A stretch of DNA of 43,985 nt, from IMG/VR virus record IMGVR_UViG_3300043406_000109, positions 1-43,985 of that record. One strand, 5' to 3'. Positions 1-43,985 of this stretch are shown here, in pieces; position 1 is the stretch's first letter; the number at the start of each line of letters is the position of its first letter. The notes below the pieces were generated by a model, which was given only the letters and a program-made list of their open reading frames with translations, did no database searches and was not told the DNA's origin. The DNA comes from a virus. The translations under genes and the position numbers were made by a program.

Positions 1-127
1 CCGATCCTGTCCGGGGGTGATCCGTACACGATCATCGCACCATGGGCGGAGGCGGACTTGGCGGAAGTGCAGATGCACCAACTGCGCGACGTCGCGTACT
101 TCACCCACGGGGATTATGAGACGTACA
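1..127. repeat. Terminal overlap, copy 1 (identical to 43859-43985). Indicates a circular assembly or a direct terminal repeat
   Basis: Both ends read base by base: 'ccgatcctgtccgggggtgatccgtacacg...ggggattatgagacgtaca' is present at both termini. Unique length is therefore 43858 bp. Confidence 0.97.
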
Positions 128-2007
128 AGCTCGTGCGGCTCGCGGATGACGATTGGACGTTGGAACCGGTGGCGTGGACGCAACCGCCGATGCTGGATGC
201 CAACATTACCACAACGACGATCACACCATCCGCCACCACGGGCACCATCACGCTGGACGCGTCTGACGACCTGTGGGAAGCGGCGCACGTGGGTTCGTAC
301 TGGCGCATCGGCCACAAGCGGGCCGCCCACACCGAACCGATGGCGATCACCGGCAACGGCAACGGCACGGCCTTTGAAATTTTCGGCCCGTGGGAACTGC
401 GCACGTACGGCAATTGGGGCGCGACCGTGATCCTTGAACGATCCACGGATGGCGGCACCGTGTACGAGTCCGTGCGCCAGTGGACGGGGTTTATCACGGC
501 CGGCGTCGGATCCCGCAACGTGTCTTCCGAGGGCACCGCTGAAACGAACGCGCTTTATCGCGTGCGGATCGCGAATTTCGATTCTGCCGGCACGGACGCC
601 AAGGTGGTGCTGGAGGCCCCGCAGGCCGTCGTGTTCGGCATCGTCAAGATCACGGACGTGGACGATGCCACCAACGCGGACGCCGTGGTGATCTCCGAAC
701 TCTACGCCACGACGGCAACCACGGAATGGGCGGAGGGCGCATGGTCCGGTGTTCGTGGGTACGCGCGAACCGTCGCTTCGCACGAACAGCGGTTGCTGTT
801 CGGAGGCACCTTTTACCAGCCAAACGGCACGTGGGGATCCGCCACGGACGATTTCGAGAACTTTGAAGGCGGCACGGATGCGGACGATTCGTGGGCGTTC
901 GAGTTGGCCGGCGCAGAGTTGAATCTGATCATGTGGATGTGTTCCGCCAACGTGCTGTTGATCGGCACGTCCGGCGGAGAATGGCGCATGCGCGGCAACA
1001 GCGCGGGCGATCCGATCACGCCTTCGCGCGTCGACGCCAAGCAGTTGAGCCAATACGGATCCGCCCCGATTCCCGCGGTGCGCGCCGGCACGGCCGTGCT
1101 GTTCGTCGAACGCAAGGCGAAGCATGTCCGCGAAATCGTGTACACGCAGGACGTCGACCAACTGGAGGCGCCGGACCTGACGTTGCTTTCCGAGCACGTG
1201 GCCCGCTCCGGTGTCGTCAAGATGGCGTGGCAGGCGGACACCCGGATTATGTGGTGTGTGATGAATGACGGGACATGCGCGGCCCTCACCTACAACCGAG
1301 AAGAACAAGTGGTGGGATGGCACCGCCACGTCACGGACGGGGATTTTCTGAGCGTGACGACGGTTTACGGCCCCGACGATACGACGGACGAAGCGTGGTT
1401 CGTCGTGGAACGCACCAACGGCAAGATGATCGAACGCCTGCATCCGCAAACGTGGGAGGCGGACGGCGCCGTGAAGGCGGACGCGTTCCACGTCGATTCC
1501 GGGCTGTCGTACAACGGCTCGCCGAACACTGCGTTTGGCGGCGCCGATCACCTCGCGGGCCTCACCTGTGTGGCCCTCGCGGACGGCGTGCCGATTCACG
1601 GCGTGGCGGTTGACGACAACGGCGACTTCGTTTTGGACGAACCCGCCAGCAAGGTGCACATCGGCCTTGAGTACGTGCCCGTGCTGTCGCCGTTCCGGCT
1701 GGATTCGGACCAACTGTTGGGGATCCACCTCGGAAAAACGAAGCGCGTCGTGGCGTTGACGCTTCGCCTGCGGACGACGTTGGGCCTCACGTGCACCGTC
1801 GATCCGGAAGGGGAGGACGAGGAAGACAAACCCGTGGAGTTCCCGGACGGCGGCGTGCCGGCGAACCCGCCTTTGTTCACTGGCGATTTACCGGTGGATT
1901 TTTCCAGCGCCCACGAGTTCGATCCCCGGGTGATCATCAAACAACCGGAGCCGTTGCCGTTCATCCTCGTGGCGATGGTGGTCGGATACACCGTTTCAAG
2001 CTCGTGA
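1..2007 (+). CDS. 3' part of the same nozzle / tail tubular protein B-like gene (T7 gp12-like body)
   Basis: Frame 1 is open from base 1 to TGA 2005-2007. 'RDVAYFTHGDYETYKLVRL..W' plus the 'RFxYS..ALELG..YMRF' start match my recollection of podovirus nozzle proteins. It follows the tail tubular A-like gene and precedes the internal virion protein genes. Confidence 0.7.
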   Translation, partial: PILSGGDPYTIIAPWAEADLAEVQMHQLRDVAYFTHGDYETYKLVRLADDDWTLEPVAWTQPPMLDANITTTTITPSATTGTITLDASDDLWEAAHVGSYWRIGHKRAAHTEPMAITGNGNGTAFEIFGPWELRTYGNWGATVILERSTDGGTVYESVRQWTGFITAGVGSRNVSSEGTAETNALYRVRIANFDSAGTDAKVVLEAPQAVVFGIVKITDVDDATNADAVVISELYATTATTEWAEGAWSGVRGYARTVASHEQRLLFGGTFYQPNGTWGSATDDFENFEGGTDADDSWAFELAGAELNLIMWMCSANVLLIGTSGGEWRMRGNSAGDPITPSRVDAKQLSQYGSAPIPAVRAGTAVLFVERKAKHVREIVYTQDVDQLEAPDLTLLSEHVARSGVVKMAWQADTRIMWCVMNDGTCAALTYNREEQVVGWHRHVTDGDFLSVTTVYGPDDTTDEAWFVVERTNGKMIERLHPQTWEADGAVKADAFHVDSGLSYNGSPNTAFGGADHLAGLTCVALADGVPIHGVAVDDNGDFVLDEPASKVHIGLEYVPVLSPFRLDSDQLLGIHLGKTKRVVALTLRLRTTLGLTCTVDPEGEDEEDKPVEFPDGGVPANPPLFTGDLPVDFSSAHEFDPRVIIKQPEPLPFILVAMVVGYTVSSS

Positions 2008-2876: not shown

Positions 2877-4238
2877 ATGGCCGATCTCCCCGTTCTTCAA
2901 GCCGGCGCCCCACAGGCCGCCCCGATTGCCGGAACCACGCTCAACGCCGAAGCAGTGGGCGCCCCGGGCCGCGCGTTGGTCGGATTCGGCGACGCCATCC
3001 AATCCGCCGCGGCCGTGGCCGGCGACACGGCGTTGCACATCCAGAACGCCAAGAACGTCGCCGCGACCGCGGACGCCGCGCGCCAAATGGATGAAGCGTT
3101 CGCGCAGTACCAAGTGGAAATGCAGAAGCAGACCGACGAAAGCACGTGGACTGACGACTGGATGCAGCGGGCCGGCAAGCTCCGCGTCGACCTGCTGAAA
3201 AGCGCCGCCGGCCCGGCCGCGAAACGCGCGATCGACGAGGATCTCAAAAACTGGGCGAGCAAGACCACCACACAGGTGCGCGGCCAGCAAAGCGCCCGCA
3301 CCACGCAACGCCAACAGGCGCGCATCGGCATGGCCGCGGAATACATGTTCAAGAATGGCGACTATGAGCGCGGCGCCGCGTTCATCGACTCCGGGGAAAA
3401 GGCCGGGTTGTACTTCCCGGAGGAAGCACAGGCGTTGCGCGACAAGGGCCATGAGATTGTCGACTTCAATCAGGCCAATCGCGCCATCGGCGCGGATCCA
3501 ATCGCGGCCGGCGCCGCGCTGGATGACAAAACCCCGACCGGCCGTTGGCGCAACTTCACGTCGCTGGACGAGAACACCCGGCAGGCCTTGAAGGTCGAAG
3601 CGGAGCGGGCCACGGCGCACGTGCGCGAGGATACGTACCGTTCCGTGATCGACCGCCGGAACGCCGGTACGATCGTACCGCCCGACGAACTGCAACGCTA
3701 CGTCGACCAAAAGTTGCTCACGGCGCCGCAAATGAAATCAATTCTGGCGGAGCAACGCCGTTCCGGGGACGATCCGGAGGTGTACAACGATGCCGCGACA
3801 GCGTTCACGGCCGCGGATCACTACGTGCACAAGGACGATCCCACGAACAAACGGTTCACCGAAATCTTGATGATGGGCGCCGGCCTGCCGCCCACCCTGC
3901 GGGACGAGGTGGAACGCCGGTTGCGCGGCAAGACCGCCAAGACCGGCGAAAACACCGCGTTGAAACTCGCCAACGACTACGTGGAGGGCCAGCATCGCGG
4001 CGGGTTCTACGGCAACGCGTCCGTGATTTCGGGGCGGGCGCTCAACCAAAAAGAGTTTGAGGCGGCCAATCGCCGGCTCGTGGAACTGAAGCAGGAAATT
4101 GCCCGCTTCACCGAAGCGAACCCGACCGCCTCGGCCACGGACGTTTTGACGCACATCCAGACCTTGGACGTCAAGAAGCGCACGGACCCCACGCCAATTG
4201 TGGACGCCATCACGGGCGTGGGATCCGGGGGGTTGTAA
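2877..4238 (+). CDS. Internal virion protein candidate (453 aa, helical)
   Basis: ATG 2877 lies 1 nt after the upstream TAA; the track ORF 2739-4238 extends upstream into the previous gene. Position corresponds to T7 gp15. No catalytic motif seen. Confidence 0.6.
   Translation: MADLPVLQAGAPQAAPIAGTTLNAEAVGAPGRALVGFGDAIQSAAAVAGDTALHIQNAKNVAATADAARQMDEAFAQYQVEMQKQTDESTWTDDWMQRAGKLRVDLLKSAAGPAAKRAIDEDLKNWASKTTTQVRGQQSARTTQRQQARIGMAAEYMFKNGDYERGAAFIDSGEKAGLYFPEEAQALRDKGHEIVDFNQANRAIGADPIAAGAALDDKTPTGRWRNFTSLDENTRQALKVEAERATAHVREDTYRSVIDRRNAGTIVPPDELQRYVDQKLLTAPQMKSILAEQRRSGDDPEVYNDAATAFTAADHYVHKDDPTNKRFTEILMMGAGLPPTLRDEVERRLRGKTAKTGENTALKLANDYVEGQHRGGFYGNASVISGRALNQKEFEAANRRLVELKQEIARFTEANPTASATDVLTHIQTLDVKKRTDPTPIVDAITGVGSGGL
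3667..3678. repeat. Palindrome GTACGATCGTAC, copy 1 (inside CDS 2877-4238; encodes GTIVP)
   Basis: Read directly. The extended form GGTACGATCGTACC spans 3666-3679. Confidence 0.9.
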
Positions 4239-4242
4239 GACC

Positions 4243-7200
4243 ATGCCCAACGCAGTTCCCGCCTCGCCAGCGGCACAGGAACAGCCGCGCGACCCCCTCA
4301 CGGTGTTCGATGGGTTGTTCGCGTCGACCGATAATTGGTCGGGCGTCCTGCCGGCCTCGTCCGTCTCGCGGATCAACGCCCAACTGGCCGGATCCGTGGA
4401 CCCCAAAACGGACCGCATGCGCATGGCGAACCAAGCATGGCTGGCGCACTCGTTCAAGAAACCGGCCGGCGAAGTCGCGGATGGGTACGAGGGTTACAAG
4501 CAGGCATGGGCCAAACAGGTGTTGGGCACGGACAAGCCGATGGACGATGCCACGTTCTACGCTTCAACTGGGCAATGGATGCAGAAGCGAAAGGCGGAAC
4601 GTGTGATGCTCAACGACATGGCCGCCGGAATGTTCGACGGACTGCGCAAGGGCAAGACCTTCGATCAATCGTTTGAAGATCAGCGCCGGGCCAATTGGCT
4701 GTCGAACAAGGGGTGGGAGGCCAAGAATCAGGACCGGTACCGCGAGTTGCTCCGTTCCACGTGGAACAATATAGGGGAAACCCGGAGCCGGCTGGAGCCT
4801 TTGATTGATGAACTCGCGGGGTTTTACCGATACGCCCGTGCGGGCACCAAGCCGGGCGAGGGCGATGCGTTTGTGGCACACCGGGACGCGTTGGTGAAGA
4901 AACTGGGGGGCCTCAACGCCAACGATCGCGAAATGGCCATGGACTTCGCCTCGGGGATGGCGTCGACCGATGCGACTCCGGAAAAAGGTTTTCTGGAAAA
5001 GCTCGGTGGGCGGCTCGCGCGCGGCAGTGACACCCTCGGGTTTGAGGCGATCCAAGGTTTCCACCAACTGACCGCGCCCATGGGCGTGTCGTTCGACGTG
5101 CTCAACGGCGACGTGGAACGCTCCATGATGGCGCGCGTGACGGGCGAAGTGGATCCGCTGAAGGCGAACGGCTGGATTGCCAACGGCCTGTTGGATGCGA
5201 GCGAAAGTTTTCCGCGCATGGCGATTTCGCTCACGCCTCCGGGGATCGCGGTGAACGTGATGGCCTACAAGTCCGAACTCCGGGCGGACTTCCTCGCGCG
5301 CGGCGTCAGCCCGATGGAGGCGCAAGGCCTCTCCGCCGTGGCCGCGCTCCCCTATGCTGCGCTCGACTACGTTTCCGCGAAAATGGTGTTTGGCGGAACC
5401 GTGCCCGGGTTGGATCGCGTGTTGGCGCCGATCAAATCGGCCGCCGGCCTGACGTTCTCCGCGGGCGCGAAACGCGCGGCCGTGATCTTCGGCGTGGAGT
5501 TGGGCGAACAGTATTTGCAGGAGGCGGCACAAGACCTGACGGCGCCCACGGTCCAAGCCATGGCCGGGTTGCTTAACGACAAGATTCCTGCCGTGGACTG
5601 GCGCAAGGAGTTCGCCCGGGTGGGCGCCGCGTCGCCGCAAACGCTGGCCGCCCTGTTGCCGCTCGTGCTGATCGGTACGACCACGGCCACTTTCAAGGAA
5701 AGGGGATACGGGAAAAAGTACGTGCAACAGGTCGCCCATCTGGAGGCCTTGGGGTTCACGCCGGACGCGATTCAGGGGATCACCGCGGCCAAAACCCCCG
5801 ACGAGGCCAACGCGGTGATGGCCCGCGAGTGGAACCGGCGCAAGACCGACACGCCGGTGCAGCAAGCGGCCGTGGAAAAACTCAATCAAGACATGGCCAC
5901 CGCGGCCGATGAAGTGGGCATGCCAGCCGCGGAACCGCCCTCCGTCACGCTCAAGCCACTGCCGGCCGGCGCCACAGTGGAGTTCCAAGGCGCCAAGCAT
6001 GCGATGTTCGAAGGTGTCGGGCCGAAGGTCGACCATTGGTTGGTGAAGCTCCCGGGCGAAACCCGGGGCGAAGTGCTGACGGCCGAAGCACTGGCGAACC
6101 GCGGTTTTGTTCCACCCTCGCGCGTCCCTGATTTCATCAAGAGCATTGGCCAAGCGCAGACGATCGCGGACATGGACGCACTGGGGAAGACGAACGACGC
6201 CGGCCTGTCGGGACTCGCGCACGAAATCGGCCTCGGTGTGACGACTCCCGCGGAAGTGCGCGCGTTGGAAACGGCGGCGAAGGAATTTGCGGACGAGGCC
6301 CGCGCCGTGATGAACGGCCCCGGCTCCATCGAATCCAAGTTCGACCTTGGACAGATGTTGTCGACCAAGGCACAGCTTTTCCGGGAGGCGCACGAGGCCG
6401 CCACGGGCGAAGGATCCGCCGGCCTGCACCTGCGGACGCAAAACGAGAACTTTCGCCCGCCGATCACACGCAACGCGGATGGCACGTTGAGTGTGACGAC
6501 GGAGGATGGCACGGCGCACGTGGCGTCGACGCCCGAGGAAGCGGCGTCGATTCTTCGGGGCGTGAAACCCGGCGCCGCACCGGTCGACCTGTCCACGCCG
6601 GGCGCCTCACTGGACGCACGCGCGGCGGCCACGAACACAATTGCGACCGGCGCACAGGAAACAGACATGCCGGCGGACGCGGAGTTTACCCGCTACGGCT
6701 CGCAACCGAACCGTGCCCGACTCGCACTGACGGCACAGAACAAGGGCGGCGTGTCGGCGCCGCAAGTGATGGCGGCCTTCGGCGACATTGTGAAAGCGTT
6801 CGGCGGCCGTGGCTCACTGATGATCCGGATTGGTCGCATGGGCCGGAAGGCCAAAACCGCGCTCGGTTTCTACCGGCTCCGCGAGCGGATCATTCGCATT
6901 GGCTCCGCGAACAACCTTGAAACGGCCGCGCATGAAGTGGCCCACGCGCTGGACGATGCGGTGTTCGGCATCGGGCACGGTTGGGGCACGAAGGTGGTCC
7001 CCGCGGATGCCCACGCCGAACTGATGCAACTCGGGCGCGACCTGTACGGATCGCGAAATCCCGTGGGTGGGTATGCGTCCGAGGGTTGGGCGGAGTTCGT
7101 CCGCCTGTGGCTGTTGGATCCCGAACAGGCACAGACCAAGGCGCCGCAGTTGTGGGCGCACATGGGCACGCTGTGGGGCAAGATGGATCCGGCCGTGCAA

Positions 7201-9954
7201 CTCGCCGCGGAACGCGCGCAAAAGCTCGGCACGACGTTCTACCGTCAAGGCGCGATGGAGCGGGCGCGACAGTCCATCGCGCAACAGCCCTCGCGGTTCG
7301 CCGTGGTGGCCGAACGGGCGAAAACCGCCCTTGAAACCGTCCGGCGCAAGTGGATTGAGTCCGCCCAACCGATCAAGGATTTCGTCGACGCGGCCGTGGA
7401 AAGTGGCGGACCGATCCCGGACGCGGTGAATCCGTTTTTCACCCTCACCGCGCGCCGGCTCACGGCGGATTCAATTGTCGATTACATGGCCCGCACCGCG
7501 ATGATCGACCACGCCGGCAACGTCACCGGCAAACCTTTGCAGGATGCGTTTGCGATCGTGAAGGACAAGCGGGACGATTTCGTGATCTACCTGTGGGCGA
7601 AACGCGCCCTCGCGCTGTGGGACACGAACCGCAATCCCGGACTGGCCAAGGCGGACGCGGAACAACTCGTGGCCGAACTCGAAACGCCGGCCTTTGAACT
7701 CGCGGCCCAACAGGTGTACGACTGGAACAACGCCGTGCTGGACTACGCGGCACAGGCCGTGCCGGACTTCCGCGAAGTGGTGAAAAAGATCCGCGCCGTG
7801 GATCCCGGGTTCTACATTCCACTGTTCCGCGAGTTCACCGCGCTGGATGATCGTTACGGCGGCGGCGGCGTGGCCGGCGGGAAAAACCTCGTCAAGCGGT
7901 TGAAGGGATCCGGCCGGCGGATCAAGGATCCGGTGGAGTCCATGATCGCACAGGCGAAGGCCATCGTGCTGAAGACCCAGCAAAAAATCGTGCTGGATCA
8001 AATCTTGAAGCTGGCCCAACGCACCGAAGGCATGGGCGCGTGGGTGTCAGAGGTACCGCAAAACCAAGTTCCCGAACGCGTGGCTGGCTGGCAGGTGGCC
8101 AAGCAGGTGAAAAAGTTCCTCGAATCACAGGCCAACACCCCGGAGGCGAAGGCCCTCGCCCAACAGATTGGCGACACCCTGAAGGACGAACTCGACGGCG
8201 CCGCGCTCACGTTTTTTATCCCGGCGCACCAGCCGAAACAGAACGAGGCGCCCATCCTGCCCGTGATGAAGGGCGGCGAGGTGAAGTGGTACGAGATGGA
8301 TCCGGAGCTTTACAAGGCACTGTCCGGAATGGATCTAGCGAAGCTCCCGGCCGCGCTGGATTTGTTCCTCGGGTTGCCGGCGCGCATGGTGCGACTGGGG
8401 ACCACGGGACTGCGCGCCGCGTTCTCTCTCGTCACGAATCCACTGCGCGACTTCCGCACGCTGCAAATGAACAGCACCGCGAGTTCCAACTCCGGGCAGT
8501 TGTTCGGCCTGTGGTTGTCGTCGATGCGGGAAATGGCCGTGGAGGCGATGACGTTCGGCAAGATCCGCTCGCAATGGGCGGACGTGGCGGACCGGCTCGG
8601 CATCGAAATGGCGCAATCGCTCGGACAGGACACGCGGCCGTTGCAGCGGGCCGCCCGCCGGGTGAAACGCGGCGGGGCGTGGGCACCGCTGGACATGGCG
8701 GACAACTTCGATTTGTTGCGCGAGCTTTTGCAATTCCCCGAGACGGCCGCTCGCCTCGCGGAGATCCGGGCCGTGGCGAAAGACCTTGGGTGGGATCCCT
8801 CGCAACGACTCACGCCCGCGATCGCCGCGAAGTTGATCGTGGCCGGTAAACAGGTGACAACGGATTTCACCGCGGCCGGGGAATGGGCACGCCTCTACAA
8901 TCAGGCCGTGCCGTTTTTCAATGCCGGGATCCAAGGCCCGCGCGCCCACGTGCGCGCCTTTCAGCGGGATCCCCACAAGTTCGTTTTGCGCGGCCTGATG
9001 GGCACGGCGCTGGCACTGGCCCTGTGGTGGCGGAACAAGGACGAGCCGTGGTGGCAGGAAATGAGCAGCAAGGAAAAGTACCTGTTCTCGTACATCCCGG
9101 CCGGGGATGAACTGATCCGCCTCCCGCGCTCGTTTGAAGTCGATGGCCTGTTCATGGCGTCGACGGAGGCAATGTTGGATGCGTGGTACCAGAACGATCC
9201 GGCGGCCGTGAAAGATTGGTTCGGCAACTTCGCGTCGAACATCACGCAGATCGACAGTGCCGGCGGCGTCCCGGTCCCGCCGGTACCGGTACTCACCAAG
9301 CTGGCCGCGGAGCAACTGGCGAACCGCGATTTCTTTTTCAACCGGCCGATCGTACCGCGGGGCGAACTGGAAAATGTCCGCCCGGAGGAACAGTACAACG
9401 AGTTCACCACGGCCGCGGCGATCGCGGCCGGCGGCATCCTGAAGATTTCCCCGCGGCGGATCGACCACACCATCCGCAACCTGTTCGGCCCGGTGGGCAT
9501 CGACCTTGTGGGCCTGTTCGGCCACGGCGACGGATCCGCCACGACCACGCGCGAACTGGAGGCCGCGGACACGCCGGTGTTGGGCGTCCTGTTCCAGCGC
9601 GGCGGACAGGTGGCCCGTAACCCCAAGTCCGTGGAGGCCCTGTACGATCGTTATGAGGATGCGCTCAAGATCCAGCGCAGCAAGCGCGAGCAGGAAACGG
9701 ACGAACAGAAACAGGTCCGCCTGATGTTGCAGGACGCGGTTCGCGCACAGACGGCGCTGGCGATGATTCAAAAGCACACGGCCGGACGCGAGGAACGCCG
9801 GCAACTAGCGTTGACGCGCATCGCCGTGGCGCGGAGTGCGGTGAAGATGGCGGACAGTGGCGAGGTGGACCGCGCGCAAAACCTCGAAATCTTGGGCGAG
9901 GCCAGACAGTCGCTCATGGATGAAATGCAGGACAGCGAACCGCCAGCGCCATGA
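4243..9954 (+). CDS. Giant virion-associated (ejection / polyvalent-type) protein, 1903 aa, with a zincin-like HExxH motif
   Basis: ATG 4243 lies 4 nt after the upstream TAA. It is the longest ORF in the window. 'AAHEVAHALDD' (HEVAH codons at 6931-6945) is followed by 'GYASEGWAEF'. It is the last gene of the structural arm, the T7 gp16-like position. Confidence 0.7.
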   Translation: MPNAVPASPAAQEQPRDPLTVFDGLFASTDNWSGVLPASSVSRINAQLAGSVDPKTDRMRMANQAWLAHSFKKPAGEVADGYEGYKQAWAKQVLGTDKPMDDATFYASTGQWMQKRKAERVMLNDMAAGMFDGLRKGKTFDQSFEDQRRANWLSNKGWEAKNQDRYRELLRSTWNNIGETRSRLEPLIDELAGFYRYARAGTKPGEGDAFVAHRDALVKKLGGLNANDREMAMDFASGMASTDATPEKGFLEKLGGRLARGSDTLGFEAIQGFHQLTAPMGVSFDVLNGDVERSMMARVTGEVDPLKANGWIANGLLDASESFPRMAISLTPPGIAVNVMAYKSELRADFLARGVSPMEAQGLSAVAALPYAALDYVSAKMVFGGTVPGLDRVLAPIKSAAGLTFSAGAKRAAVIFGVELGEQYLQEAAQDLTAPTVQAMAGLLNDKIPAVDWRKEFARVGAASPQTLAALLPLVLIGTTTATFKERGYGKKYVQQVAHLEALGFTPDAIQGITAAKTPDEANAVMAREWNRRKTDTPVQQAAVEKLNQDMATAADEVGMPAAEPPSVTLKPLPAGATVEFQGAKHAMFEGVGPKVDHWLVKLPGETRGEVLTAEALANRGFVPPSRVPDFIKSIGQAQTIADMDALGKTNDAGLSGLAHEIGLGVTTPAEVRALETAAKEFADEARAVMNGPGSIESKFDLGQMLSTKAQLFREAHEAATGEGSAGLHLRTQNENFRPPITRNADGTLSVTTEDGTAHVASTPEEAASILRGVKPGAAPVDLSTPGASLDARAAATNTIATGAQETDMPADAEFTRYGSQPNRARLALTAQNKGGVSAPQVMAAFGDIVKAFGGRGSLMIRIGRMGRKAKTALGFYRLRERIIRIGSANNLETAAHEVAHALDDAVFGIGHGWGTKVVPADAHAELMQLGRDLYGSRNPVGGYASEGWAEFVRLWLLDPEQAQTKAPQLWAHMGTLWGKMDPAVQLAAERAQKLGTTFYRQGAMERARQSIAQQPSRFAVVAERAKTALETVRRKWIESAQPIKDFVDAAVESGGPIPDAVNPFFTLTARRLTADSIVDYMARTAMIDHAGNVTGKPLQDAFAIVKDKRDDFVIYLWAKRALALWDTNRNPGLAKADAEQLVAELETPAFELAAQQVYDWNNAVLDYAAQAVPDFREVVKKIRAVDPGFYIPLFREFTALDDRYGGGGVAGGKNLVKRLKGSGRRIKDPVESMIAQAKAIVLKTQQKIVLDQILKLAQRTEGMGAWVSEVPQNQVPERVAGWQVAKQVKKFLESQANTPEAKALAQQIGDTLKDELDGAALTFFIPAHQPKQNEAPILPVMKGGEVKWYEMDPELYKALSGMDLAKLPAALDLFLGLPARMVRLGTTGLRAAFSLVTNPLRDFRTLQMNSTASSNSGQLFGLWLSSMREMAVEAMTFGKIRSQWADVADRLGIEMAQSLGQDTRPLQRAARRVKRGGAWAPLDMADNFDLLRELLQFPETAARLAEIRAVAKDLGWDPSQRLTPAIAAKLIVAGKQVTTDFTAAGEWARLYNQAVPFFNAGIQGPRAHVRAFQRDPHKFVLRGLMGTALALALWWRNKDEPWWQEMSSKEKYLFSYIPAGDELIRLPRSFEVDGLFMASTEAMLDAWYQNDPAAVKDWFGNFASNITQIDSAGGVPVPPVPVLTKLAAEQLANRDFFFNRPIVPRGELENVRPEEQYNEFTTAAAIAAGGILKISPRRIDHTIRNLFGPVGIDLVGLFGHGDGSATTTRELEAADTPVLGVLFQRGGQVARNPKSVEALYDRYEDALKIQRSKREQETDEQKQVRLMLQDAVRAQTALAMIQKHTAGREERRQLALTRIAVARSAVKMADSGEVDRAQNLEILGEARQSLMDEMQDSEPPAP

Positions 9955-26974: not shown

Positions 26975-27153
26975 GCGCATGCCCGGCCTGTGCCCGACCG
27001 ATGGAAGCGAACACCCTGTTCGTGTGCCGGACTTGCTGGCCGCGCGTGCCGGCGGTTGAACGTCGCGCCATCGCGTCGATGCACCTCAACCGGCAGGACA
27101 CCACCACGAAGCTGGCCAAGATTGTGCGGATCCTGAAGGCCGCGAACCCATGA
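26971..27153 (+). CDS. Zinc-ribbon protein (60 aa, GTG start)
   Basis: GTG 26971 overlaps the upstream TGA. Two CxxC pairs: 'CPAC...(12 aa)...CRTC'. Confidence 0.5.
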   Translation: MSACPACARPMEANTLFVCRTCWPRVPAVERRAIASMHLNRQDTTTKLAKIVRILKAANP

Positions 27154-28664
27154 GCGCACGCGGGCAATCGTCCAACCCGGACAACACGACGTCGAAGGAC
27201 ACGAAAACCACCGGCGCCCCGGCCGATGGTGCGCCCTACGGGTCCAACGTGCCGTTGTCGTCCCTGACGGGCGCCGATGATCTCAAGGCCATCGAAGCAC
27301 TGACGGGCACGAGTGGCCTACTGGCCAAAACGGCCGCGAACACGTGGGCACTGCGCACGCTGGCCAGTGCATCCGCCGGCCTGACGTGGACCAACGGCGA
27401 CGGCGCGGCCGGAAACCCCACGCCCGTGCTCGCCAACGACCTTTTGGGCCTTGAGGGCCTCGCGTCGACCGGCTTTGCCGTGCGCACCGCAACGGACACG
27501 TGGGCACAGCGCAGTCTCACACTCGCGGCGAGTGCTGACGTGTTGTTGGGGATCACGAATCCCGCGGGCGTGGCCGGGGATCCGCAGTTCACTCTCGACA
27601 CGCAAACCGCGAACCGCGTGTTTGCCGGCCCGACGAGCGGCGCCGCCGCGGCGCCCACGTTCCGGGCCTTGGTGGCGTTGGACGTGCCCGACCTGTCGGG
27701 GACGTACCAACCGCTTGACGCGGATCTCACGGCGATTGCCGCCCTGACCACGACCGCCGCGGCGCGCGGGGTGCTCACGTTGGCGGCGACGGCCAATCGA
27801 CTATATGGGAGCGACGGCAGCGGGAACGCTTCGCTCGTCACGCTGACAGCGAACCTCGCCCTCGCCGCCGCCGCCCTCGACACGGTGCAAGGAATCCAGA
27901 CGACGAGCACCCCACAGTTTGCGCGTCTTGGTCTTGGCACCGCGGCTGACGGAGCGGCGTTGTTGAAGGTGGGCACGGCCCTGACGGGTATCGGCAAGTT
28001 TGCCGCGGGCGTGTTGTCGGCGTCAGCCGGCGTCACGGATCTCGCGGCGACAACCGCGAATCGGTTGTTCGGCACCGATGGCAGCGGGGTGAGCGGGCTC
28101 GTTACGCTGTCCACGGGGTTGGCGTTGGCCGCGGCGTCGTTGGGCTTGGATGTGAACGCGCTCACGGCGGACGCAACGCCGGATGAATCGGCCGACTACT
28201 TACTCGAGTACGACGCAAGCGCGAGCGCCCACAAAAAGGTTCTGATCCGCAATCTGTTTCAGGCCGGCACCTTCACGCCCACCGTGACCTTTGCGACTGC
28301 GGGGGATTTGTCGGTGAGCTATAGCACGCAAACGGGGGCGTATCTGCGTCTAGGCAGTGCGATCATCGTTTCGATCGTCGTCGGCTTCACCCCCACCTAC
28401 ACCACGGCAAGCGGGGCGATTCGCATCGCGGGCCTGCCGGTCAACGCGACGACGCCCAACGCGCGGTTGATCTGCGTCCTAACCGCGGGTTCAATCACTT
28501 TTCCGGCCGGCGCGACTTATTTGGTGGGAAACACGAACAGCGGTACGGCGTATTGCACCGTTGGTTCACTCGGCAGCGCAGTGGCCGGGGCATTGACCAC
28601 AACGACGGAGTGGACTTCGGCGGTGGCGCGCACACTGGCGTTGTCGGGCATTTACTACGTGTGA
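27150..28664 (+). CDS. Tail fibre protein (504 aa)
   Basis: Ala/Thr/Gly-rich with internal repeats ('TANRLYGSDGSGNASLVTLTANLALAAAAL' / 'TANRLFGTDGSGVSGLVTLSTGLALAAASL'; 'TAANTWALRTL' / 'TATDTWAQRSL') and 'FRALVALDVPDLS..YQPLDADLTAIAAL', typical of phage fibre repeats. Confidence 0.75.
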   Translation: MSARGQSSNPDNTTSKDTKTTGAPADGAPYGSNVPLSSLTGADDLKAIEALTGTSGLLAKTAANTWALRTLASASAGLTWTNGDGAAGNPTPVLANDLLGLEGLASTGFAVRTATDTWAQRSLTLAASADVLLGITNPAGVAGDPQFTLDTQTANRVFAGPTSGAAAAPTFRALVALDVPDLSGTYQPLDADLTAIAALTTTAAARGVLTLAATANRLYGSDGSGNASLVTLTANLALAAAALDTVQGIQTTSTPQFARLGLGTAADGAALLKVGTALTGIGKFAAGVLSASAGVTDLAATTANRLFGTDGSGVSGLVTLSTGLALAAASLGLDVNALTADATPDESADYLLEYDASASAHKKVLIRNLFQAGTFTPTVTFATAGDLSVSYSTQTGAYLRLGSAIIVSIVVGFTPTYTTASGAIRIAGLPVNATTPNARLICVLTAGSITFPAGATYLVGNTNSGTAYCTVGSLGSAVAGALTTTTEWTSAVARTLALSGIYYV

Positions 28665-29653
28665 CGCCCATCGACGTTTTCGCCATTGGCGGACAAAGCA
28701 ATGCTGTCGGCTACGGCACGGGTGGTCCGCCGATTCCGCCCGGCGTGGCATGGCAATGGTGGGCCGGGGCACTGACGGCACTGACTGGCGATCCGGTGGG
28801 CGGATCAAGCGGCAGCGCGTGGCCGGCGTTTGCGTTGCGCTGGCGCGTGATCACCGGGCGCGCGATTTGTTTCGTGCCTTGTGCTGTCAGCGGCAGTGCG
28901 CAAACCGCCGCGGCCGACACCGGAGCGGGCAACTGGAGTGGGACCGGCGCTTTATTCAACGCCATGCTGGGGAGCGTGGCTGACGCACTGGCGGCGCTGA
29001 TCGCGGCGGATTTTCAGCCGTTGTTCCGCGGTATGATCTGGACGCAGGGTGAGGCCGACGCCGTGGCCATCGCGGGCGGGTTGCAGACGTCGGTTGATTA
29101 TCTGGCGGAACTGATCGCGATGGCCGATCGCTTTCACGACGAATTTGCGTTGGCCACTTTGTTTCTCGTTGAAACCGGCACGCGATCCGGCTCCAGCGAT
29201 GGGCCGTACGCCGCGATTCGCATCGCTCAGGAAACCGCACCGGCGGGCCGGGCGGACGTGGCCATGGTCCATTTTACCGCCAGCGAATTTGTGGACGCGG
29301 GTTGGCTGGCCCCGGGTAGCGACATTCATTGGTCGCAAGCCGGACTGGACCACGTGGGACGATTCAGTGCCGAAGCGATCGCCTCGGGCGCGGCGTTCAA
29401 CAAGCAATGGGCGCGCATGGTGGCGGCGAAAACCACCGGCGGCGCATTGCCGTGGGTGCAGTTGATCGTGGGCACCACGGGGAAGATTTATTTTGGCGCG
29501 GGACTGAATTTCATTGCGAGCGGCAGCGGTTCGCCCAACGCCGTGGTGGCGGCTCCGGTCGGAAGCATCTTCTTGCGTCGCGATGGCGGGCCGAGCACAA
29601 CACTCTACGTGAAAGAATCCGGCACCGGAACGACGGGATGGAACGCCAAATGA
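28661..29653 (+). CDS. SGNH / sialate O-acetylesterase (SASA, CE6-like) family esterase with a fibre-type C-terminal module (330 aa, GTG start)
   Basis: GTG 28661 overlaps the fibre TGA. 'FAIGGQSNAVG' (GQSN catalytic Ser block) and 'IWTQGEADA'. C-terminus 'GSIFLRRDGGPSTTLYVKESGTGTTGW' is a motif I recall from phage fibre/spike proteins. Confidence 0.7.
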   Translation: MTPIDVFAIGGQSNAVGYGTGGPPIPPGVAWQWWAGALTALTGDPVGGSSGSAWPAFALRWRVITGRAICFVPCAVSGSAQTAAADTGAGNWSGTGALFNAMLGSVADALAALIAADFQPLFRGMIWTQGEADAVAIAGGLQTSVDYLAELIAMADRFHDEFALATLFLVETGTRSGSSDGPYAAIRIAQETAPAGRADVAMVHFTASEFVDAGWLAPGSDIHWSQAGLDHVGRFSAEAIASGAAFNKQWARMVAAKTTGGALPWVQLIVGTTGKIYFGAGLNFIASGSGSPNAVVAAPVGSIFLRRDGGPSTTLYVKESGTGTTGWNAK

Positions 29654-29808
29654 CGACCGCTGAAGCACTGATGCTGCTCAACCATGCCACGCAACCGCAG
29701 AACGCGGGCAAGATCACGCGCGAGGGTTACGCGCAGTTGCAAATCGCTTTGGAAGTGATCGCCGAAGCGATCAAGCCTTCCGCCTCACCGTCACCGGAGA
29801 CAAAATGA
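29650..29808 (+). CDS. Small hypothetical protein (52 aa)
   Basis: ATG 29650 overlaps the upstream TGA (ATGA). Its stop is coupled to the next ATG. Confidence 0.45.
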   Translation: MTTAEALMLLNHATQPQNAGKITREGYAQLQIALEVIAEAIKPSASPSPETK

Positions 29809-30521
29809 TGAACGCAAATGCTTGGGCCTTCCTGCTCGCCGCGTCCGTCCTGCTCAGTTGGCAGGACAACTCGAACAACGAGGATGGGTTTCGTTTGGAG
29901 CGGTCGACCACGAGCGCGAGCGCGGGGTTCGTCGAAATCAACGGCGCGATCCCGGCCAACGCGACCACCTTCAGCGATGCGCTCGTGGCGCCGTCGACGG
30001 CGTATTGGTACCGCGTGCGCGCGTTTAACACTGCGGGCAACTCGGCGTTTTCCAACGTGGCGCCCGTCACGACCCCGCCGGCCGTGGTGATCCCGGTCGC
30101 ACCGGGCGGGGCGGGCGCGACGATCGCGGGCACGCTGACGAACGTCAGCAACCGCGGCCTCGTGACCGCGAACGACACGACCACCATCCCCGGGTTCACC
30201 GTCAGCGGCGGGCCGGTCAAGGTGCTCGTGCGCGCGATCGGGCCCGGCCTCGCGGCCTTCGGTGTGCCGGGCGTGTGCGCGGATCCCGTGATTTCGTTGC
30301 GCAACCAGACGGCGCCGACGGTGGAAATTGCCGGCAACGACAATTGGAGCGGACAGGCGTTGGTCGACGCGGCCGTGGCCGCGGGGGCGTTTCCGCTCGT
30401 GGCCGGGAGCAAGGACGCGGCGCTGTTGCTCACGCTGGCCCCGGGATCTTACACGGCCGTGATCACGGGCGTGGGCGGTGCCACGGGCGTGGCGCTGGCC
30501 GAAGTGTTCGTTGTCCCATGA
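29805..30521 (+). CDS. Secreted FN3-domain protein with a C-terminal beta-rich domain (238 aa)
   Basis: Signal-like 'MMNANAWAFLLAASVLLS'. FN3 hallmark 'WQDNSNNEDGFRLERS...TAYWYRVRAFNTAGNSAFSN'. The C-domain 'VLVRAIGPGLAAFGVPG..DPVISL...GAFPL..GSKDAALLLTL.PGSYTAV' is like a domain I recall in secreted Verrucomicrobia/Planctomycetes proteins. Confidence 0.65.
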   Translation: MMNANAWAFLLAASVLLSWQDNSNNEDGFRLERSTTSASAGFVEINGAIPANATTFSDALVAPSTAYWYRVRAFNTAGNSAFSNVAPVTTPPAVVIPVAPGGAGATIAGTLTNVSNRGLVTANDTTTIPGFTVSGGPVKVLVRAIGPGLAAFGVPGVCADPVISLRNQTAPTVEIAGNDNWSGQALVDAAVAAGAFPLVAGSKDAALLLTLAPGSYTAVITGVGGATGVALAEVFVVP

Positions 30522-39039: not shown

Positions 39040-39185
39040 ACCGGCCCAAGCACAGACACCCGGCGAGGTAGCAATCCCGGCCTGACCGCTCCACTCCAAG
39101 CGCACAGGCCCGGAAATCCGGACACCCTGAGACGCGAGGCCCATCCTCGGTTTCACCTTCAACGCCCCGCACGGGGTTTTGTCAC

Positions 39186-40650: not shown

Positions 40651-40686
40651 GGCCGCTCGGGTGTCACTCCCCGGGCGGCCTTTTTT
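40651..40686 (+). terminator. Strong rho-independent terminator
   Basis: 11-bp stem GGCCGCTCGGG (40651-40661) / CCCGGGCGGCC (40670-40680) with one G:U pair, 8-nt loop, then TTTTTT (40681-40686). Confidence 0.8.
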
Positions 40687-40692
40687 CTTTCC

Positions 40693-41337
40693 ATGGCCAT
40701 CACGAAACTGAAAACCATCAATGCCGCCCTCCACATGGTGGGCGAACCGTCGATCACCTCACTGGAGGCCACGTCCGCACGCGCGTTGGTCACGCTGGAG
40801 GAATGGGAGTTCGCGCTCGATCAACTCTTGCGCTCCGCGTTTTGGAACTTCGCCCGCAAGCGGACCACGCTCGTGGTCCAATCCCCGGCGCCGGACTTCG
40901 GGTGGGATTTCCGTTACGCCCTGCCCTCGGACTACGTGCAGATGTTCAAACTCAACGGGGAGGAACCCGGCGAGCCGGGCGAGTGGTGGGTGATTGAGTC
41001 CGGGTACCTGCTCACGGACGAAAGTGAGGCCAACGTCGAATACACCGCCCGTCCGGATGACGCCGCGACCCCCGTCACGGGCACCTTCACCACGGCGGAA
41101 CTACTCGCGCGCATGGATCCCAACGCCGTACAGGCCCTCGTGACCGGGCTCGCGGTCAAACTGGCCACGCCGTTGAACAAGGACGAGGCCGCGTTGATGT
41201 TCCAACTCGAACAACTTCACGCACGGCACCTGTCGGCCGCGATCACAGACAACGCCAACGAGGCCAAACGGCCGCGGCGGGATCCCGCGTTGGAATCCTC
41301 GTTTGTCGTGGCCCGCATGTGGGGCCGGCTGGGGTGA
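40693..41337 (+). CDS. Tail tubular protein A / adaptor-like protein (214 aa)
   Basis: 'KTINAALHMVGEPSITSLE....LEEWEFALDQLLRSAFWNFARKRTTL....FRYALPSDYV' matches my recollection of the gp11-like N-terminal pattern. It precedes the nozzle-related ORFs. Confidence 0.6.
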   Translation: MAITKLKTINAALHMVGEPSITSLEATSARALVTLEEWEFALDQLLRSAFWNFARKRTTLVVQSPAPDFGWDFRYALPSDYVQMFKLNGEEPGEPGEWWVIESGYLLTDESEANVEYTARPDDAATPVTGTFTTAELLARMDPNAVQALVTGLAVKLATPLNKDEAALMFQLEQLHARHLSAAITDNANEAKRPRRDPALESSFVVARMWGRLG

Positions 41338-41340
41338 ACG

Positions 41341-41547
41341 ATGGCGAAGCAGAAAACGGAGAGGGCGTGGCTGGCGTTCACGGCCGGGGAACTGTCGCCG
41401 TTGCTGGAGGGCCGCGCGGACGTCGACAAGATGGACCGGGCGGCGGCCACGCACGAAAACATGGTGCTTGAAACCACCGGGCGATCGCTCGCCCGCCCGG
41501 GATTGCAGTTCATCGCGCTGGCCAAGGAATCGGAGCCGGACCCCTGA
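41341..41547 (+). CDS. Stand-alone copy of the nozzle N-terminal module (68 aa)
   Basis: 'MAKQKTERAWLAFTAGELSPLLEGRADVDKMDRAAATHENMVLETTGRSLARPGLQFIA...' is 37/59 identical (ungapped) to the N-terminus of the next ORF. Its stop overlaps the next ATG (TGATG). Confidence 0.5.
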   Translation: MAKQKTERAWLAFTAGELSPLLEGRADVDKMDRAAATHENMVLETTGRSLARPGLQFIALAKESEPDP

Positions 41548-43751
41548 TGGGCAAGCAACGCTCACAACGTGCCATTCTCGCCTTCAATGCCGGCGAGTGG
41601 TCCCCGCGGATGGAGGGCCGCGCGGATCTGGAACGCTCCCACCGCGCCGCGGCCACGCTGGAGAACGTGCTGGTGGAAACCTACGGCCGCGCGCGTGCCC
41701 GGCCCGGCCTCCAGTACATTGCCGGCGTGCGGATCCCGATTCCCCTCACCTACGTGAGCCGGGAGGGCGTGGCGCGCATGTACGGGATCACCGAGTTTGG
41801 CGATTTGTCGGATCCACCGAAGAAATACCTCGAACTTATTTCCAATCGCGCGGAGATCAACCGCAGCGGGGCCACGCCGGCCTTCAGCTACGTGCGCGCA
41901 CCGCAGTTGGTGCGGTTCACCACGTCCGGCACGAAAACCGTGCAACTCGCCGCGGACGCCGAACGGCCCGGAGTCTCGGGCATCGCCGCCAGTGACACGC
42001 TGGAATCGTTCGACTTCACCGGCGATTACACGGCCAAGCCACTGGACTGGACGAAGGCGAAGCGCCGGAAGTACACGACAGGCGCCGCGGCGCTCGCGGC
42101 GGGCGAGGCGGCCGTGGATTTCTCACTGCACACCGGCAACCAAGGGGACACGACGACGACGACCGGCGACACGCTGTTGCGGATCGCGTGGCCGGTGTGG
42201 AAAGGCACGTATTGGGAAATCACCGGCACACTTTCGTCCGCGGCCTCGGTTGGGACGCTGCGCATGGCGTTGCGCACGGGGAACGCGGATCCCGGCGACC
42301 CCGAGACGGCCGGCGTGTTGGTTTCGCCGGAAGGCGCATTCACCATCTACGTACCGCCGGATTCGTCCGTGCGGTTTTGGGTGCGCGCGTCGACGTGGGG
42401 CACCGAGTGGAACGGCTCCGCCTTCCCGCCCAACTTCGTCGAACTCTACCCGGCGCCGTGGTCCGTGGCGGGCATGGCGGACGCGGAATTGCCTATGTGG
42501 TTCTATTTCCCCGCCGGCACCGGTTACGCGGTCAACGACAAGATGGAGTTGGACGATGGCGTGCAACGCTACGAGGAACGCCTTGCGCTGGAGGATACGT
42601 TGACGGCCGCGATTCAGCGCGGCTCCGAGGGCGTCGACTGGATCGAAGGCGTGGAATCCGTGGCCACCACGATTTCGATCACCGGCGGAACCACGGCCGA
42701 ATCACACTCCCCGATGGATTGGGAGGGCCGCATCGTCACGGCCTCGCGCACGTTCACCGGTTTGACCGCGGGCAACCGCTACTCGGTGGACGTGCTCGTG
42801 CGCACCAACACGATTGGACTCACGGACTACGCTTTCGCCACCGAGTCTTTTGAGTTCGTGACCGGGGCGGCGTCCTATGCGTTCGACTACGAAACGATTG
42901 CGGCCGTGGGGCAGGACAAACGGGCGATGACGATGACGGCGACGGACCTTGGCGCGGATCCCGTGGCGCCGTCCGCGTTGGATCCGGACGTGATGCTGTG
43001 GTACGGCCGGATCCTTCAGGCCGGCGGCACGATCACCGGCGCGTCCCTGACCATCGCGAACGATCTCGTGTTGGCGCTCAAGGCGGCGTCATTGTGGGAT
43101 AAAATCACCTACCTGCTGCCGCTGTTGGGCGATTTCGCGGCCATCCTCGTTCCGCTCCGCGATCGCAACAACGAGGGCAACGCGACGAACACCGCATTCG
43201 TGGCCGGGGATTTCTCGGAGGCCACCGGGTTGCAGGGCAATGGATCGTCGAAGTACCTGATCTTTCCCTTTTCGCCCAACGACCTTGGCACCTCGCAAGT
43301 CGGCGGCCTGTTTTGGTGGGAACTCGGGTTCACCGGATCCGGCAACGTCGAACCGATCGGCTGTTACAACAACGCGGCGAACCGCCGGTTCGTGCTGGAT
43401 TTGCGGTCGACGCTGGAGGCGTTCCGGTGGGGCACCGCGGGCACCGATGCCGCGATCACGGCCGTGGCCGCCACGAGCAAATTCTACCACGGCGAACGAC
43501 GTTCATCGACCGACCGGGAGTTGTACCGCAATGGCGCGTCCATCGCCACGGATGCCGGCGCCGACTCCACCACGGGGATTGCCGACAACAACATCATCGC
43601 ATGGGGGAATGACCTTGGCGCGTCGATCGCGCCGTGGCCGGGCCGTGGTGGTTGTGCCGGATGCACGAACGGCACCATGTCCGACGCGGACGCGCTCGCC
43701 TTGTACGAAATCTTGCGCGATGAACTGATGACGCCCACCACACGAATCTGA
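41547..43751 (+). CDS. Nozzle-N-module fusion protein with a LamG/ConA-like C-terminal domain; probable tail spike/fibre (734 aa)
   Basis: N-terminus 'MGKQRSQRAILAFNAGEWSPRMEGRADLERSHRAAATLENVLVETYGRARARPGLQYIA'. The C-terminal about 250 aa ('...LVLALKAASLWDKI...GLQGNGSSKYL...FYHGERRS.TDRELYRNG...') resembles the Laminin_G_3-type domains of phage fibres (recollection). Confidence 0.65.
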   Translation: MGKQRSQRAILAFNAGEWSPRMEGRADLERSHRAAATLENVLVETYGRARARPGLQYIAGVRIPIPLTYVSREGVARMYGITEFGDLSDPPKKYLELISNRAEINRSGATPAFSYVRAPQLVRFTTSGTKTVQLAADAERPGVSGIAASDTLESFDFTGDYTAKPLDWTKAKRRKYTTGAAALAAGEAAVDFSLHTGNQGDTTTTTGDTLLRIAWPVWKGTYWEITGTLSSAASVGTLRMALRTGNADPGDPETAGVLVSPEGAFTIYVPPDSSVRFWVRASTWGTEWNGSAFPPNFVELYPAPWSVAGMADAELPMWFYFPAGTGYAVNDKMELDDGVQRYEERLALEDTLTAAIQRGSEGVDWIEGVESVATTISITGGTTAESHSPMDWEGRIVTASRTFTGLTAGNRYSVDVLVRTNTIGLTDYAFATESFEFVTGAASYAFDYETIAAVGQDKRAMTMTATDLGADPVAPSALDPDVMLWYGRILQAGGTITGASLTIANDLVLALKAASLWDKITYLLPLLGDFAAILVPLRDRNNEGNATNTAFVAGDFSEATGLQGNGSSKYLIFPFSPNDLGTSQVGGLFWWELGFTGSGNVEPIGCYNNAANRRFVLDLRSTLEAFRWGTAGTDAAITAVAATSKFYHGERRSSTDRELYRNGASIATDAGADSTTGIADNNIIAWGNDLGASIAPWPGRGGCAGCTNGTMSDADALALYEILRDELMTPTTRI

Positions 43752-43985
43752 TGACGCCCACCCTCCACCGTTTTCAGTATTCCACCACGACCACCTTCGC
43801 GCTGGAGTTAGGTTCGGACGATGGCGGCGGGTACATGCGGTTTTTTGCCGGCGGGCAGCCGATCCTGTCCGGGGGTGATCCGTACACGATCATCGCACCA
43901 TGGGCGGAGGCGGACTTGGCGGAAGTGCAGATGCACCAACTGCGCGACGTCGCGTACTTCACCCACGGGGATTATGAGACGTACA
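43751..43985 (+). CDS. 5' part of the junction-spanning nozzle / tail tubular protein B-like body gene (continues at base 128 of the window; 704 aa in total)
   Basis: ATG at 43751 overlaps the TGA of the upstream ORF (TGATG). Translation 'MTPTLHRFQYSTTTTFALELGSDDGGGYMRFFAGGQPILSGGDPYTIIAPWAEADL...' runs in frame into the 127-bp overlap and on into frame 1 at the window start. Confidence 0.75.
   Translation, partial: MTPTLHRFQYSTTTTFALELGSDDGGGYMRFFAGGQPILSGGDPYTIIAPWAEADLAEVQMHQLRDVAYFTHGDYETY
43859..43985. repeat. Terminal overlap, copy 2 (identical to 1-127)
   Basis: Same 127-bp string as the window start. Confidence 0.97.

Follow-up and report, generated by a model that had tools for sequence, protein, structure and literature searches.

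How does a short-tailed phage build its tail nozzle when the nozzle gene is broken into pieces and its first piece is present twice? The question is raised by the virus record IMGVR_UViG_3300043406_000109 of IMG/VR, which was analysed over its whole length of 43,985 nucleotides (hereafter the window). Three consecutive open reading frames (ORFs) on the + strand make up the locus. ORF1 (41341..41547) encodes a mini-protein of 68 amino acids (aa) that consists of the N-terminal module of a tail nozzle and a short linker only. ORF2 (41547..43751) encodes 734 aa, in which a second copy of the module is followed by a large cargo, and ORF3 encodes the nozzle body without the module. ORF3 starts at the ATG at 43751 and crosses the junction of a circular genome: it runs over 43751..43985 and continues through 1..2007 to a stop codon at 2005-2007, bases 1-127 repeating 43859-43985, and it amounts to 704 aa once this 127-nt overlap is removed, with the N-terminus MTPTLHRFQYSTTTTFALELGSDDGGGYMRFF. 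Direct reading of the sequence places one TGATG stop/start overlap, an arrangement of translational coupling, between ORF1 and ORF2 (41545..41549, +) and another between ORF2 and ORF3 (43749..43753, +). These ORFs, their coordinates and their overlaps had been described in a first-pass annotation of the same DNA, and all are present in the sequence. The reading proposed here, which draws on analogy with T7 and is considered probable though well short of certain, is that the module is supplied in trans to complete the nozzle platform and has become a portable docking tag, its plain and cargo-bearing versions sharing the six nozzle subunits.

A complete nozzle in separate pieces

To which nozzle family do the pieces belong? 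ORF3 (aa 5-701) aligns with positions 68-709 of PHROG 376 (E 3e-150), a family of 712 profile positions annotated as 'tail protein' that represents the Carin-1/LME-1-type tail nozzle and includes 'tail tubular B' of Pelagibacter podophages, Bbp13 of BPP-1, gp12 of BcepC6B and tail proteins of epsilon15-like phages. It also matches 8CK1_A, the 'Tail Nozzle' of Carin-1, over residues 75-821 (E 2e-58). The beginning of the family profile is found in the two upstream ORFs: aa 12-65 of ORF1 align with PHROG 376 positions 10-63 and aa 12-62 of ORF2 with positions 10-60, and the two match residues 16-65 and 16-63 of 8CK1_A, respectively. The similarity of the module to nozzle N-termini, on which the first-pass annotation had depended, is borne out by a profile made from the N-termini of single-chain nozzle homologues only, which detects both ORF1 (E 2.6e-18) and ORF2 (E 2.4e-20). 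When 35 modules were combined into a profile, it recovered residues 10-69 of 8CK1_A (E 2e-15) and, in 9EFK_M, the nozzle of LME-1, residues 6-57 (E 3e-10).

In both of these solved nozzles, as in the PHROG 376 alignments, module and body lie in one chain, which agrees with the earlier statement that the canonical nozzle is a single polypeptide; here the module sits in separate ORFs, twice, and ORF3 enters the profile only at position 68. Because ORF1 and ORF3 between them cover PHROG 376 from position 10 to 63 and from 68 to 709, ORF3 is the remainder of the nozzle, beginning exactly where ORF1 ends, and the two together make up the canonical protein with nothing lost. ORF2 occupies the break in the nozzle gene and has the first ~61 residues in a copy of its own. 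The original label 'T7 gp12-like' has to be narrowed: membership in the Carin-1/LME-1/BPP-1-type family stands, but T7 gp12 itself was not reached by sequence, there being no Pfam match for ORF1-3 and no T7 chain in the PDB searches with ORF3 and the module profile.

Is the second module a recent repeat? Over their first 59 residues ORF1 and ORF2 are identical at 37 positions without a gap, which reproduces the paralogy first noted. At the DNA level 114 of 177 nucleotides match, distributed as 41, 47 and 26 of 59 over codon positions 1, 2 and 3. With so few third positions alike, and with a nonsynonymous divergence (dN) of 0.31 against a synonymous divergence (dS) of ~1.5, the substitution pattern marks this as an old duplication kept by selection, neither a recent repeat nor an echo of the assembly. 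Recent gene conversion as the source of the similarity was ruled out, since the synonymous differences are near saturation (proportion of synonymous sites that differ, pS, 0.61-0.77). Both copies keep F13, G16, P20, R25, D27, N40, G47, R52 and G54, which are invariant or nearly so in fused nozzles; the module motif is F-N-x-G-E-x-S-P ... R-x-D ... N ... G ... R-R-P-G. The GC content at third codon positions (GC3) of ORF1, 0.88, is equal to or above that of its neighbours. Within ORF2 the second copy spans aa 1-61 (41547..41729, +), and similarity to the profile of nozzle N-termini ends at about aa 61. A tblastn hint that the likeness extends to aa 109 was discarded, as the second stretch scores -2.6 bits in that profile. 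In the monomer model of ORF2 the predicted local distance difference test (pLDDT) of the module is 34-59, in contrast to the confident prediction outside it; the module is thus predicted not to fold confidently alone.

The split among relatives

Is the arrangement peculiar to the window? Relatives were collected from the contigs of ORF3 homologues and by scans of IMG/VR and of metagenome collections (JGI, ENA, Logan). Unsplit orthologues, which the first-pass annotation had proposed to look for, are the majority: among the best 120 ORF3 relatives, 96 are fused to the module and about 19 start at the split point. The body-only forms have 694-725 aa, begin with 'M..RFQFS' and group together in a neighbour-joining (NJ) tree. 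The first-pass annotation had named homologues that natively start at the 'RFxYS' segment, with no N-module, as evidence against its idea. Homologues that begin there were indeed found, but they do not refute the split, because in every one examined the module is encoded separately just upstream.

A body-only nozzle with two upstream module ORFs was found at no fewer than 11 distinct loci in independent metagenomic genomes, the window included. The first and second module ORFs encode 68 and 734 aa in the window, 71 and 306 aa in L001, 71 and 737 aa in L004, 64 and 777 aa in L005, 65 and 749 aa in L006, 64 and 788 aa in L027, a mini-protein and ~790 aa in L091, and ~66 and 430 aa in L109. The order is reversed in L009 (425 and 63 aa), both ORFs carry cargo in L002 (294 and 195 aa), and L156 (110 and 569 aa) is split at another point. 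In each of eight loci compared, both junctions are overlaps or gaps of at most 6 nt. An extra module beside a fused nozzle was found at none of ~140 loci, and each of the 79 GenBank phage records with a module match has exactly one.

The mini-ORF itself has orthologues of 61-71 aa in L001, L004, L005, L006, L009, L027, L091, L109 and L167. Their dN/dS is ~0.06-0.25 with synonymous sites near saturation (dN 0.20 vs dS >3 for L005/L027; dN 0.32 vs dS 1.28 for L001/L004), a pattern that indicates purifying selection. The modules of L001, L002 and L004 are 55-62% identical across genomes by position, as against 46-51% within a genome; first- and second-position modules thus form separate orthologous groups there, so that the duplication must be older than these genomes. 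Identity between the two copies is 60-74% in the window, L005, L009 and L027.

Homing endonucleases are known to split phage genes, and L006 (JGI 3300021339, Ga0193706_1000181) has a 164-aa homing endonuclease gene of the HNH/NUMOD4 type between the adaptor gene and the mini-ORF (L006:3056-3550), which could be relevant to the rearrangement of the region.

Natural variants of the arrangement

Can the module work when it is detached, and are both versions required? Four relatives serve as natural controls. In L007 (P0024) module, insert and body form a single chain, with the module at aa 1-60 and, ahead of the nozzle body, an insert at aa ~60-322 that is homologous to the C-terminal domain of ORF2 (E 9e-18 to the window, 1.5e-20 to L006). 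L007 falls inside the split clade in the NJ tree, and this Rosetta-stone fusion suggests that ORF2-type proteins and the nozzle body function as a single unit with the module as the link. L008 has a single module gene, for a 409-aa protein of module and DUF5122 propeller, and no mini-ORF. In L167, a low-GC relative (L167:2929-7551, SDBU01014921.1), the sole module is a 61-aa mini-ORF, followed by two small ORFs and a 1132-aa protein that consists of a ~345-aa extra N-terminal domain and the nozzle body. Since this body is nearest to fused nozzles, L167 is probably the product of another, independent fission.

In L156 (L156:3862-8013, Ga0307376_10000584) the gene is split ~35 aa further along, after 'RLxPFEYS..GFYR', into a plain N-fragment of 110 aa and a cargo-bearing one of 569 aa, the cargo being inserted at the same module boundary. 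By its position this split appears to be independent of that in the window clade, within the same nozzle family, and would thus be a case of convergence. The three pieces of L156, its 572-aa upstream ORF and the relatives P0106 and P0119 have signal-peptide-like hydrophobic leaders, which are odd for phage tail proteins.

Taken together, L007, L008, L167 and L156 suggest that the module works detached and that either version can be the sole one. They also point to the module/body junction as a recurrent display site for extra domains, whether in cis or, in trans, on either side.

How did the arrangement arise? The first-pass annotation had proposed recombinational insertion of a receptor-binding gene at the shared 5' module, which is possible. 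In-frame insertion of cargo, followed by gene fission and then by duplication of the N-fragment, a course suggested by L007, L008 and L167, fits at least as well.

The cargo carried by ORF2

What does the second module carry? ORF2 was modelled as an AlphaFold2 monomer from an alignment of 150 relatives (mean pLDDT 80, predicted TM-score 0.74). A beta-rich core at aa ~63-470 contains the conserved motif YGITEFGDLSDPPKKY and is followed by a C-terminal jelly-roll domain, like those of concanavalin A (ConA) and LamG, at aa ~470-734 (42954..43748, +; assigned with Foldseek). Searched against the PDB with Foldseek, these C-terminal ~260 aa match, with probability 1.0, a carbohydrate-binding module (CBM) of family 40 (2v73, TM-score TMt 0.55), domain 4 of AbnA (5hon, TMt 0.64), the Hc lectin domains of clostridial neurotoxins and the Pan3 tailspike (a cyanopodophage chain). 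Against BFVD the same domain finds uncharacterised phage proteins of 260-280 aa (TMt 0.74-0.78) as well as ConA-like/LamG and tail-fibre entries. The initial description of ORF2 as 'LamG-like' therefore holds at the level of the fold, for the C-terminal ~260 aa only, and not for any Pfam sequence model. This domain is the putative glycan- or receptor-binding part.

An exhaustive HMMER search yielded 337 relatives of ORF2 at E<1e-10. Among the 150 listed, most align to the C-terminal domain only, which occurs in these matches as stand-alone proteins of 265-350 aa, in tandem copies and behind many different N-termini. It belongs to a large ConA-like family without a Pfam model, in which the stand-alone proteins number in the hundreds, with tandem copies in P0131 and P0137 and partial coverage by PHROG 17104 ('unknown function'). 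Full-length orthologues of ORF2 stand at the same position in L004 (54% identity) and in L006, L005 and L027 (28-33%). Other module cargoes in split genomes include Laminin_G_3 (the 294-aa protein of L002, 47 bits), the DUF5122 propeller and unassigned domains. An anchor that stays constant while lectin-like distal parts are exchanged is, as far as the sequences indicate, the pattern of receptor-binding proteins.

The core of ORF2, from 'YVSYEGSG..YGITEFGDLSDPPRKY' onward, is also found behind a different N-terminus of ~30 aa in P0137, P0143, P0175 and P0262. These module-less homologues, to which L088:5270-7408 also belongs, begin with this ~30-aa element ('TLRIxSNDPxSPR') and then continue into the conserved YGITEFGDLSDPPRKY motif, which implies a second attachment system for the same cargo family. 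No PHROG 376-type nozzle was found on the contigs of L088 and L089, both of which have ORF2-core homologues without the module, and these two are for that reason uninformative on how the cargo is attached.

How might the pieces be assembled?

Of the nine strands in the jelly-roll barrel of the T7 gp12 platform, three come from the N-terminal 45 residues, and each platform contacts two adaptors (PMC6702177). The tail proteins of LME-1 and Carin-1 are structurally T7-like (PMC12407071), and in P-SCSP1u the fibre trimers contact the nozzle platform (PMC10575957). Since the N-terminal strands of T7 gp12 form part of the adaptor-binding barrel, fragment complementation offers a model for the split nozzle: the detached N-terminal piece would insert into the platform of each of the six ORF3 bodies. 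With ORF1 in place the result would be a plain nozzle subunit, and with ORF2 a subunit bearing an appendage of ~670 aa that ends in the ConA-like lectin domain. This extension would stand out from the shoulder of the tail, where side fibres dock in T7-like phages, and would probably bind a glycan on the host surface. ORF1 and ORF2 would share, or compete for, the six sockets, and the tight translational coupling of the three ORFs may help to set their ratio. That the module is a separate gene is what would allow it to be duplicated and used as a portable docking tag. Two of the earlier suggestions, a portable adaptor and a fragment plus body assembled in trans, are both backed by the comparative evidence and are mutually compatible.

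A more specific form of this proposal is put forward tentatively, as possible but rather less probable than the general one. The nozzle would be deliberately mixed, with one body gene and two alternative strand-inserting N-fragments, plain and cargo-bearing, amounting to a natural split-protein 'tag and socket' with at least three independent origins (the window clade, L156 and L167). How many appendages a tail bears, or in what pattern, would be fixed, e.g. as an alternating 3+3, and the cargo could be swapped without touching the 2.1-kb body gene.

Several points weigh against the docking-tag reading. The platform role of the module is extrapolated from T7 gp12, a protein that the module profile does not reach, and it is assumed that two ligands compete for a single socket on each body; sharing of sockets alone leaves unexplained why nearly every split genome keeps a plain copy. 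The likeness of the ORF2 domain to lectin folds is modest (TMt 0.5-0.64 to CBMs in the PDB), and no Pfam family, LamG models included, matches ORF2 of the window at E<=1. Three uncharacterised proteins of the window (27150-28661, 28553-29650 and 29805-30518) are alternative candidates for receptor binding. All of the split genomes, moreover, are metagenomic assemblies.

Why, then, is the plain copy kept? One answer would be that there are two non-equivalent sites and that both are full, with one module in the platform and the other, for example, on the six 'spare' adaptors of the 12-mer or augmenting a neighbouring platform, so that each tail would hold six copies of ORF1 and six of ORF2. This would suit the presence of exactly two module genes in nearly all split genomes, the 12:6 ratio of adaptor to nozzle in T7-like tails (PMC6702177) and the two connector chains per nozzle chain listed in 8CK1, and the positional orthologous groups in L001, L002 and L004 are compatible with sub-functionalisation. 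However, fused nozzles contain a single module in each subunit and none comes with an additional one, the canonical structure implies no second socket, and a single module per body suffices in L007, L008 and L167; the same conserved residues, moreover, are kept in both copies, and the copies within the window, L005, L009 and L027 remain much alike. Two sites are accordingly regarded as unlikely, though they are the most credible of the alternatives. ORF1 might instead be an assembly factor, either a transient chaperone or placeholder in the socket of the body or a limiter of ORF2 copies, and be absent from, or sub-stoichiometric in, the finished tail. It is translated first in the coupled ORF1-ORF2-ORF3 unit, and it is kept though all six sockets might, in principle, be occupied by proteins of the ORF2 type. 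Against such a role, the mini-protein of L167 must be a permanent part if the platform needs the module strands, there being no other module in that genome, and the module proteins of L002, both of them cargo-bearing, look like two structural appendages. An assembly factor is therefore judged to be a little less likely still.

The remaining alternatives deny the mini-ORF any function in the tail, or deny the locus itself, and both are poorly compatible with the conservation data. If a receptor-binding cassette with a nozzle-like 5' end had recombined into the gene, ORF1 could be a decaying remnant, with only ORF2 complementing the body. Cassettes do move, since the ORF2 core family is found elsewhere behind another N-terminus; the order of mini- and cargo genes varies, being reversed in L009, and L008 lacks the mini-ORF. 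A decaying gene would not, on the other hand, be expected to stay intact in at least nine genomes whose nozzle bodies are only ~45-50% identical, under purifying selection and with all conserved module residues kept, nor does decay accord with the high GC3 of ORF1 and the tight coupling of mini-ORFs to their neighbours. The mini-ORF is, furthermore, the only module in L167, and a plain N-fragment evolved independently in L156, which makes a leftover improbable. That the window is a single metagenomic contig raises the question of a chimeric assembly, or of sequencing frameshifts in a normal nozzle gene. The architecture recurs in independent JGI, ENA and Logan assemblies, including the 54%-identity orthologue of ORF2 at the same position; 63 of 177 nt are different between the copies, distributed over codon positions as is usual under selection, and a frameshift error is unable to create an intervening gene of 2.2 kb. 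The chance of an artefact is practically negligible.

Genomic context

The nozzle genes lie 3' of the adaptor gene and 5' of the genes for internal virion (ejection) proteins, as in the PHROG 376 family, and the same synteny surrounds them in L001-L008. The tail adaptor, a gp11-like connector of 214 aa (40693..41337, +), matches PHROG 394 ('tail protein', E 6.5e-32) as well as 8ck1_E, 'Connector Protein' (E 1e-6), and orf17 of LME-1 (9efk_T), with 12 chains per entry; its product is presumed to form the ring under the nozzle platform. Downstream of ORF3 follow a gp14-like internal virion protein (2357-2875, on the basis of PHROG 418) and ejection-type proteins of very large size, with a 1918-aa protein (4198-9954; LPD38, PF18857, E 4e-25) in the position of a large internal virion or ejection protein. 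The 1918-aa protein contains the sequence HEVAH, of the HExxH type. No T7 gp17-like fibre gene (Pfam anchor PF03906) was found in ORF2 or the other window proteins scanned, several window proteins being unannotated; this is in keeping with the proposed docking tag. Among these are a 504-aa protein with a weak 'structural protein' match (27150-28664) and a 238-aa protein with a hydrophobic N-terminus and a fibronectin type III (FN3)-like domain (29805-30521), either of which could be a further virion or host-recognition component.

Bases 43859-43985 of the window repeat bases 1-127 exactly. This 127-nt direct repeat is the assembly overlap of a circular contig and no biological repeat, and without it the podophage genome is a circle of 43,858 bp with 64.6% GC; members of the clade span 52% to 66% GC. 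An exact overlap of 127 nt is typical of assembly with k=127, the genome being circular or terminally redundant.

Are the three ORFs joined at the level of translation in some other way? A programmed -1 frameshift from ORF1 into ORF2 is unsupported, the junction types varying among relatives (ATGA, TGATG, TAATG, short spacers), and a CCCGGGA heptamer at 41496, considered as a slip site because ORF2 lies in the -1 frame, merely reflects the conserved R-P-G codons. In four genomes (the window at 41335-41343, L001, L002 and L004) the adaptor gene and the first module ORF share a frame and are separated by one stop codon and 1-4 sense codons; this is probably chance, because the pattern is missing in L005 and L109. 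No Shine-Dalgarno (SD)-like motif was found upstream of ORF3 (43726-43750), the adaptor gene (40668-40692) or the major capsid gene (39161-39185). Several structural genes thus seem to start by coupling or by SD-independent initiation, which may point to the host group.

Relation to known tails and implications

The arrangement is undescribed in the literature searched and absent from the 79 GenBank records with a module match. How does it compare with known tails? It is closest to the Carin-1/LME-1-type nozzle, with which it shares a full-length body homologue in ORF3, the family's first ~60 residues in ORF1 and the ORF2 N-terminus, and the position of the genes. The solved or deposited members, however, are single polypeptides with one module per genome, whereas in the window two detached copies of the module occur, one of them on a cargo of 670 aa. 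T7 gp12 occupies the same place in the tail, and its architecture is shared according to the published comparison of LME-1 and Carin-1 with T7 (PMC12407071), but it is a single chain without detectable sequence similarity. The receptor-binding gp17 fibre of T7 is held by an N-terminal domain that folds separately and docks where adaptor and nozzle adjoin.

A podovirus nozzle encoded by adjacent genes is known from PhiXacm4-11, in which gp30 and gp31 form a hexamer of heterodimers with extra surface domains and no reported sequence homology to T7 gp12 (bioRxiv 10.64898/2026.02.16.706137). Here, too, the nozzle is split at the level of the genes. In PhiXacm4-11 both pieces are large (gp30 >400 aa), as against a module of ~60 aa and a body, and no duplicated fragment, or fragment used as a tag, is described. 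Modular receptor-binding proteins, such as those with the N-domain of T7 gp17 and the anchor/branching systems of Klebsiella podophages (PMC13352976, PMC12692247), likewise combine a conserved N-terminal element with exchangeable distal domains, a modularity well established for tail fibres and spikes. Their anchor is thought to fold by itself and to dock on the surface of the tail or on another receptor-binding protein, whereas the anchor described here is homologous to the nozzle N-terminus and would be part of the nozzle fold, and a copy without cargo coexists with it.

Essential phage proteins encoded as 'genes in pieces' are a further parallel, as in the split NrdA of Aeromonas phage Aeh1 and the split DNA polymerase genes of T4-like phages. 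In these cases, too, an essential protein is made in fragments that reassemble non-covalently after a DNA insertion, and an endonuclease gene lies beside the mini-ORF of L006. The proteins concerned are, however, enzymes whose genes were broken by a homing endonuclease, and in which neither a duplicated fragment nor a newly gained function is known, as opposed to the duplication and cargo found here.

What would the arrangement mean, if the reading is correct? For annotation, it argues that 'N-terminally truncated' nozzle genes and adjoining ORFs of 60-70 aa should not be dismissed as pseudogenes or noise. For host-range engineering, it would provide a compact tag of ~60 residues and a defined display site, the module/body junction, that is tolerant of in-frame insertions. 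In evolutionary terms, splitting a gene and then copying one very small fragment would be an inexpensive way to obtain a tail hub of mixed subunits. For the phages themselves, host-recognition proteins would be mounted on a short tail in a novel manner, the appendage donating part of the nozzle fold rather than docking by a separate anchor domain.

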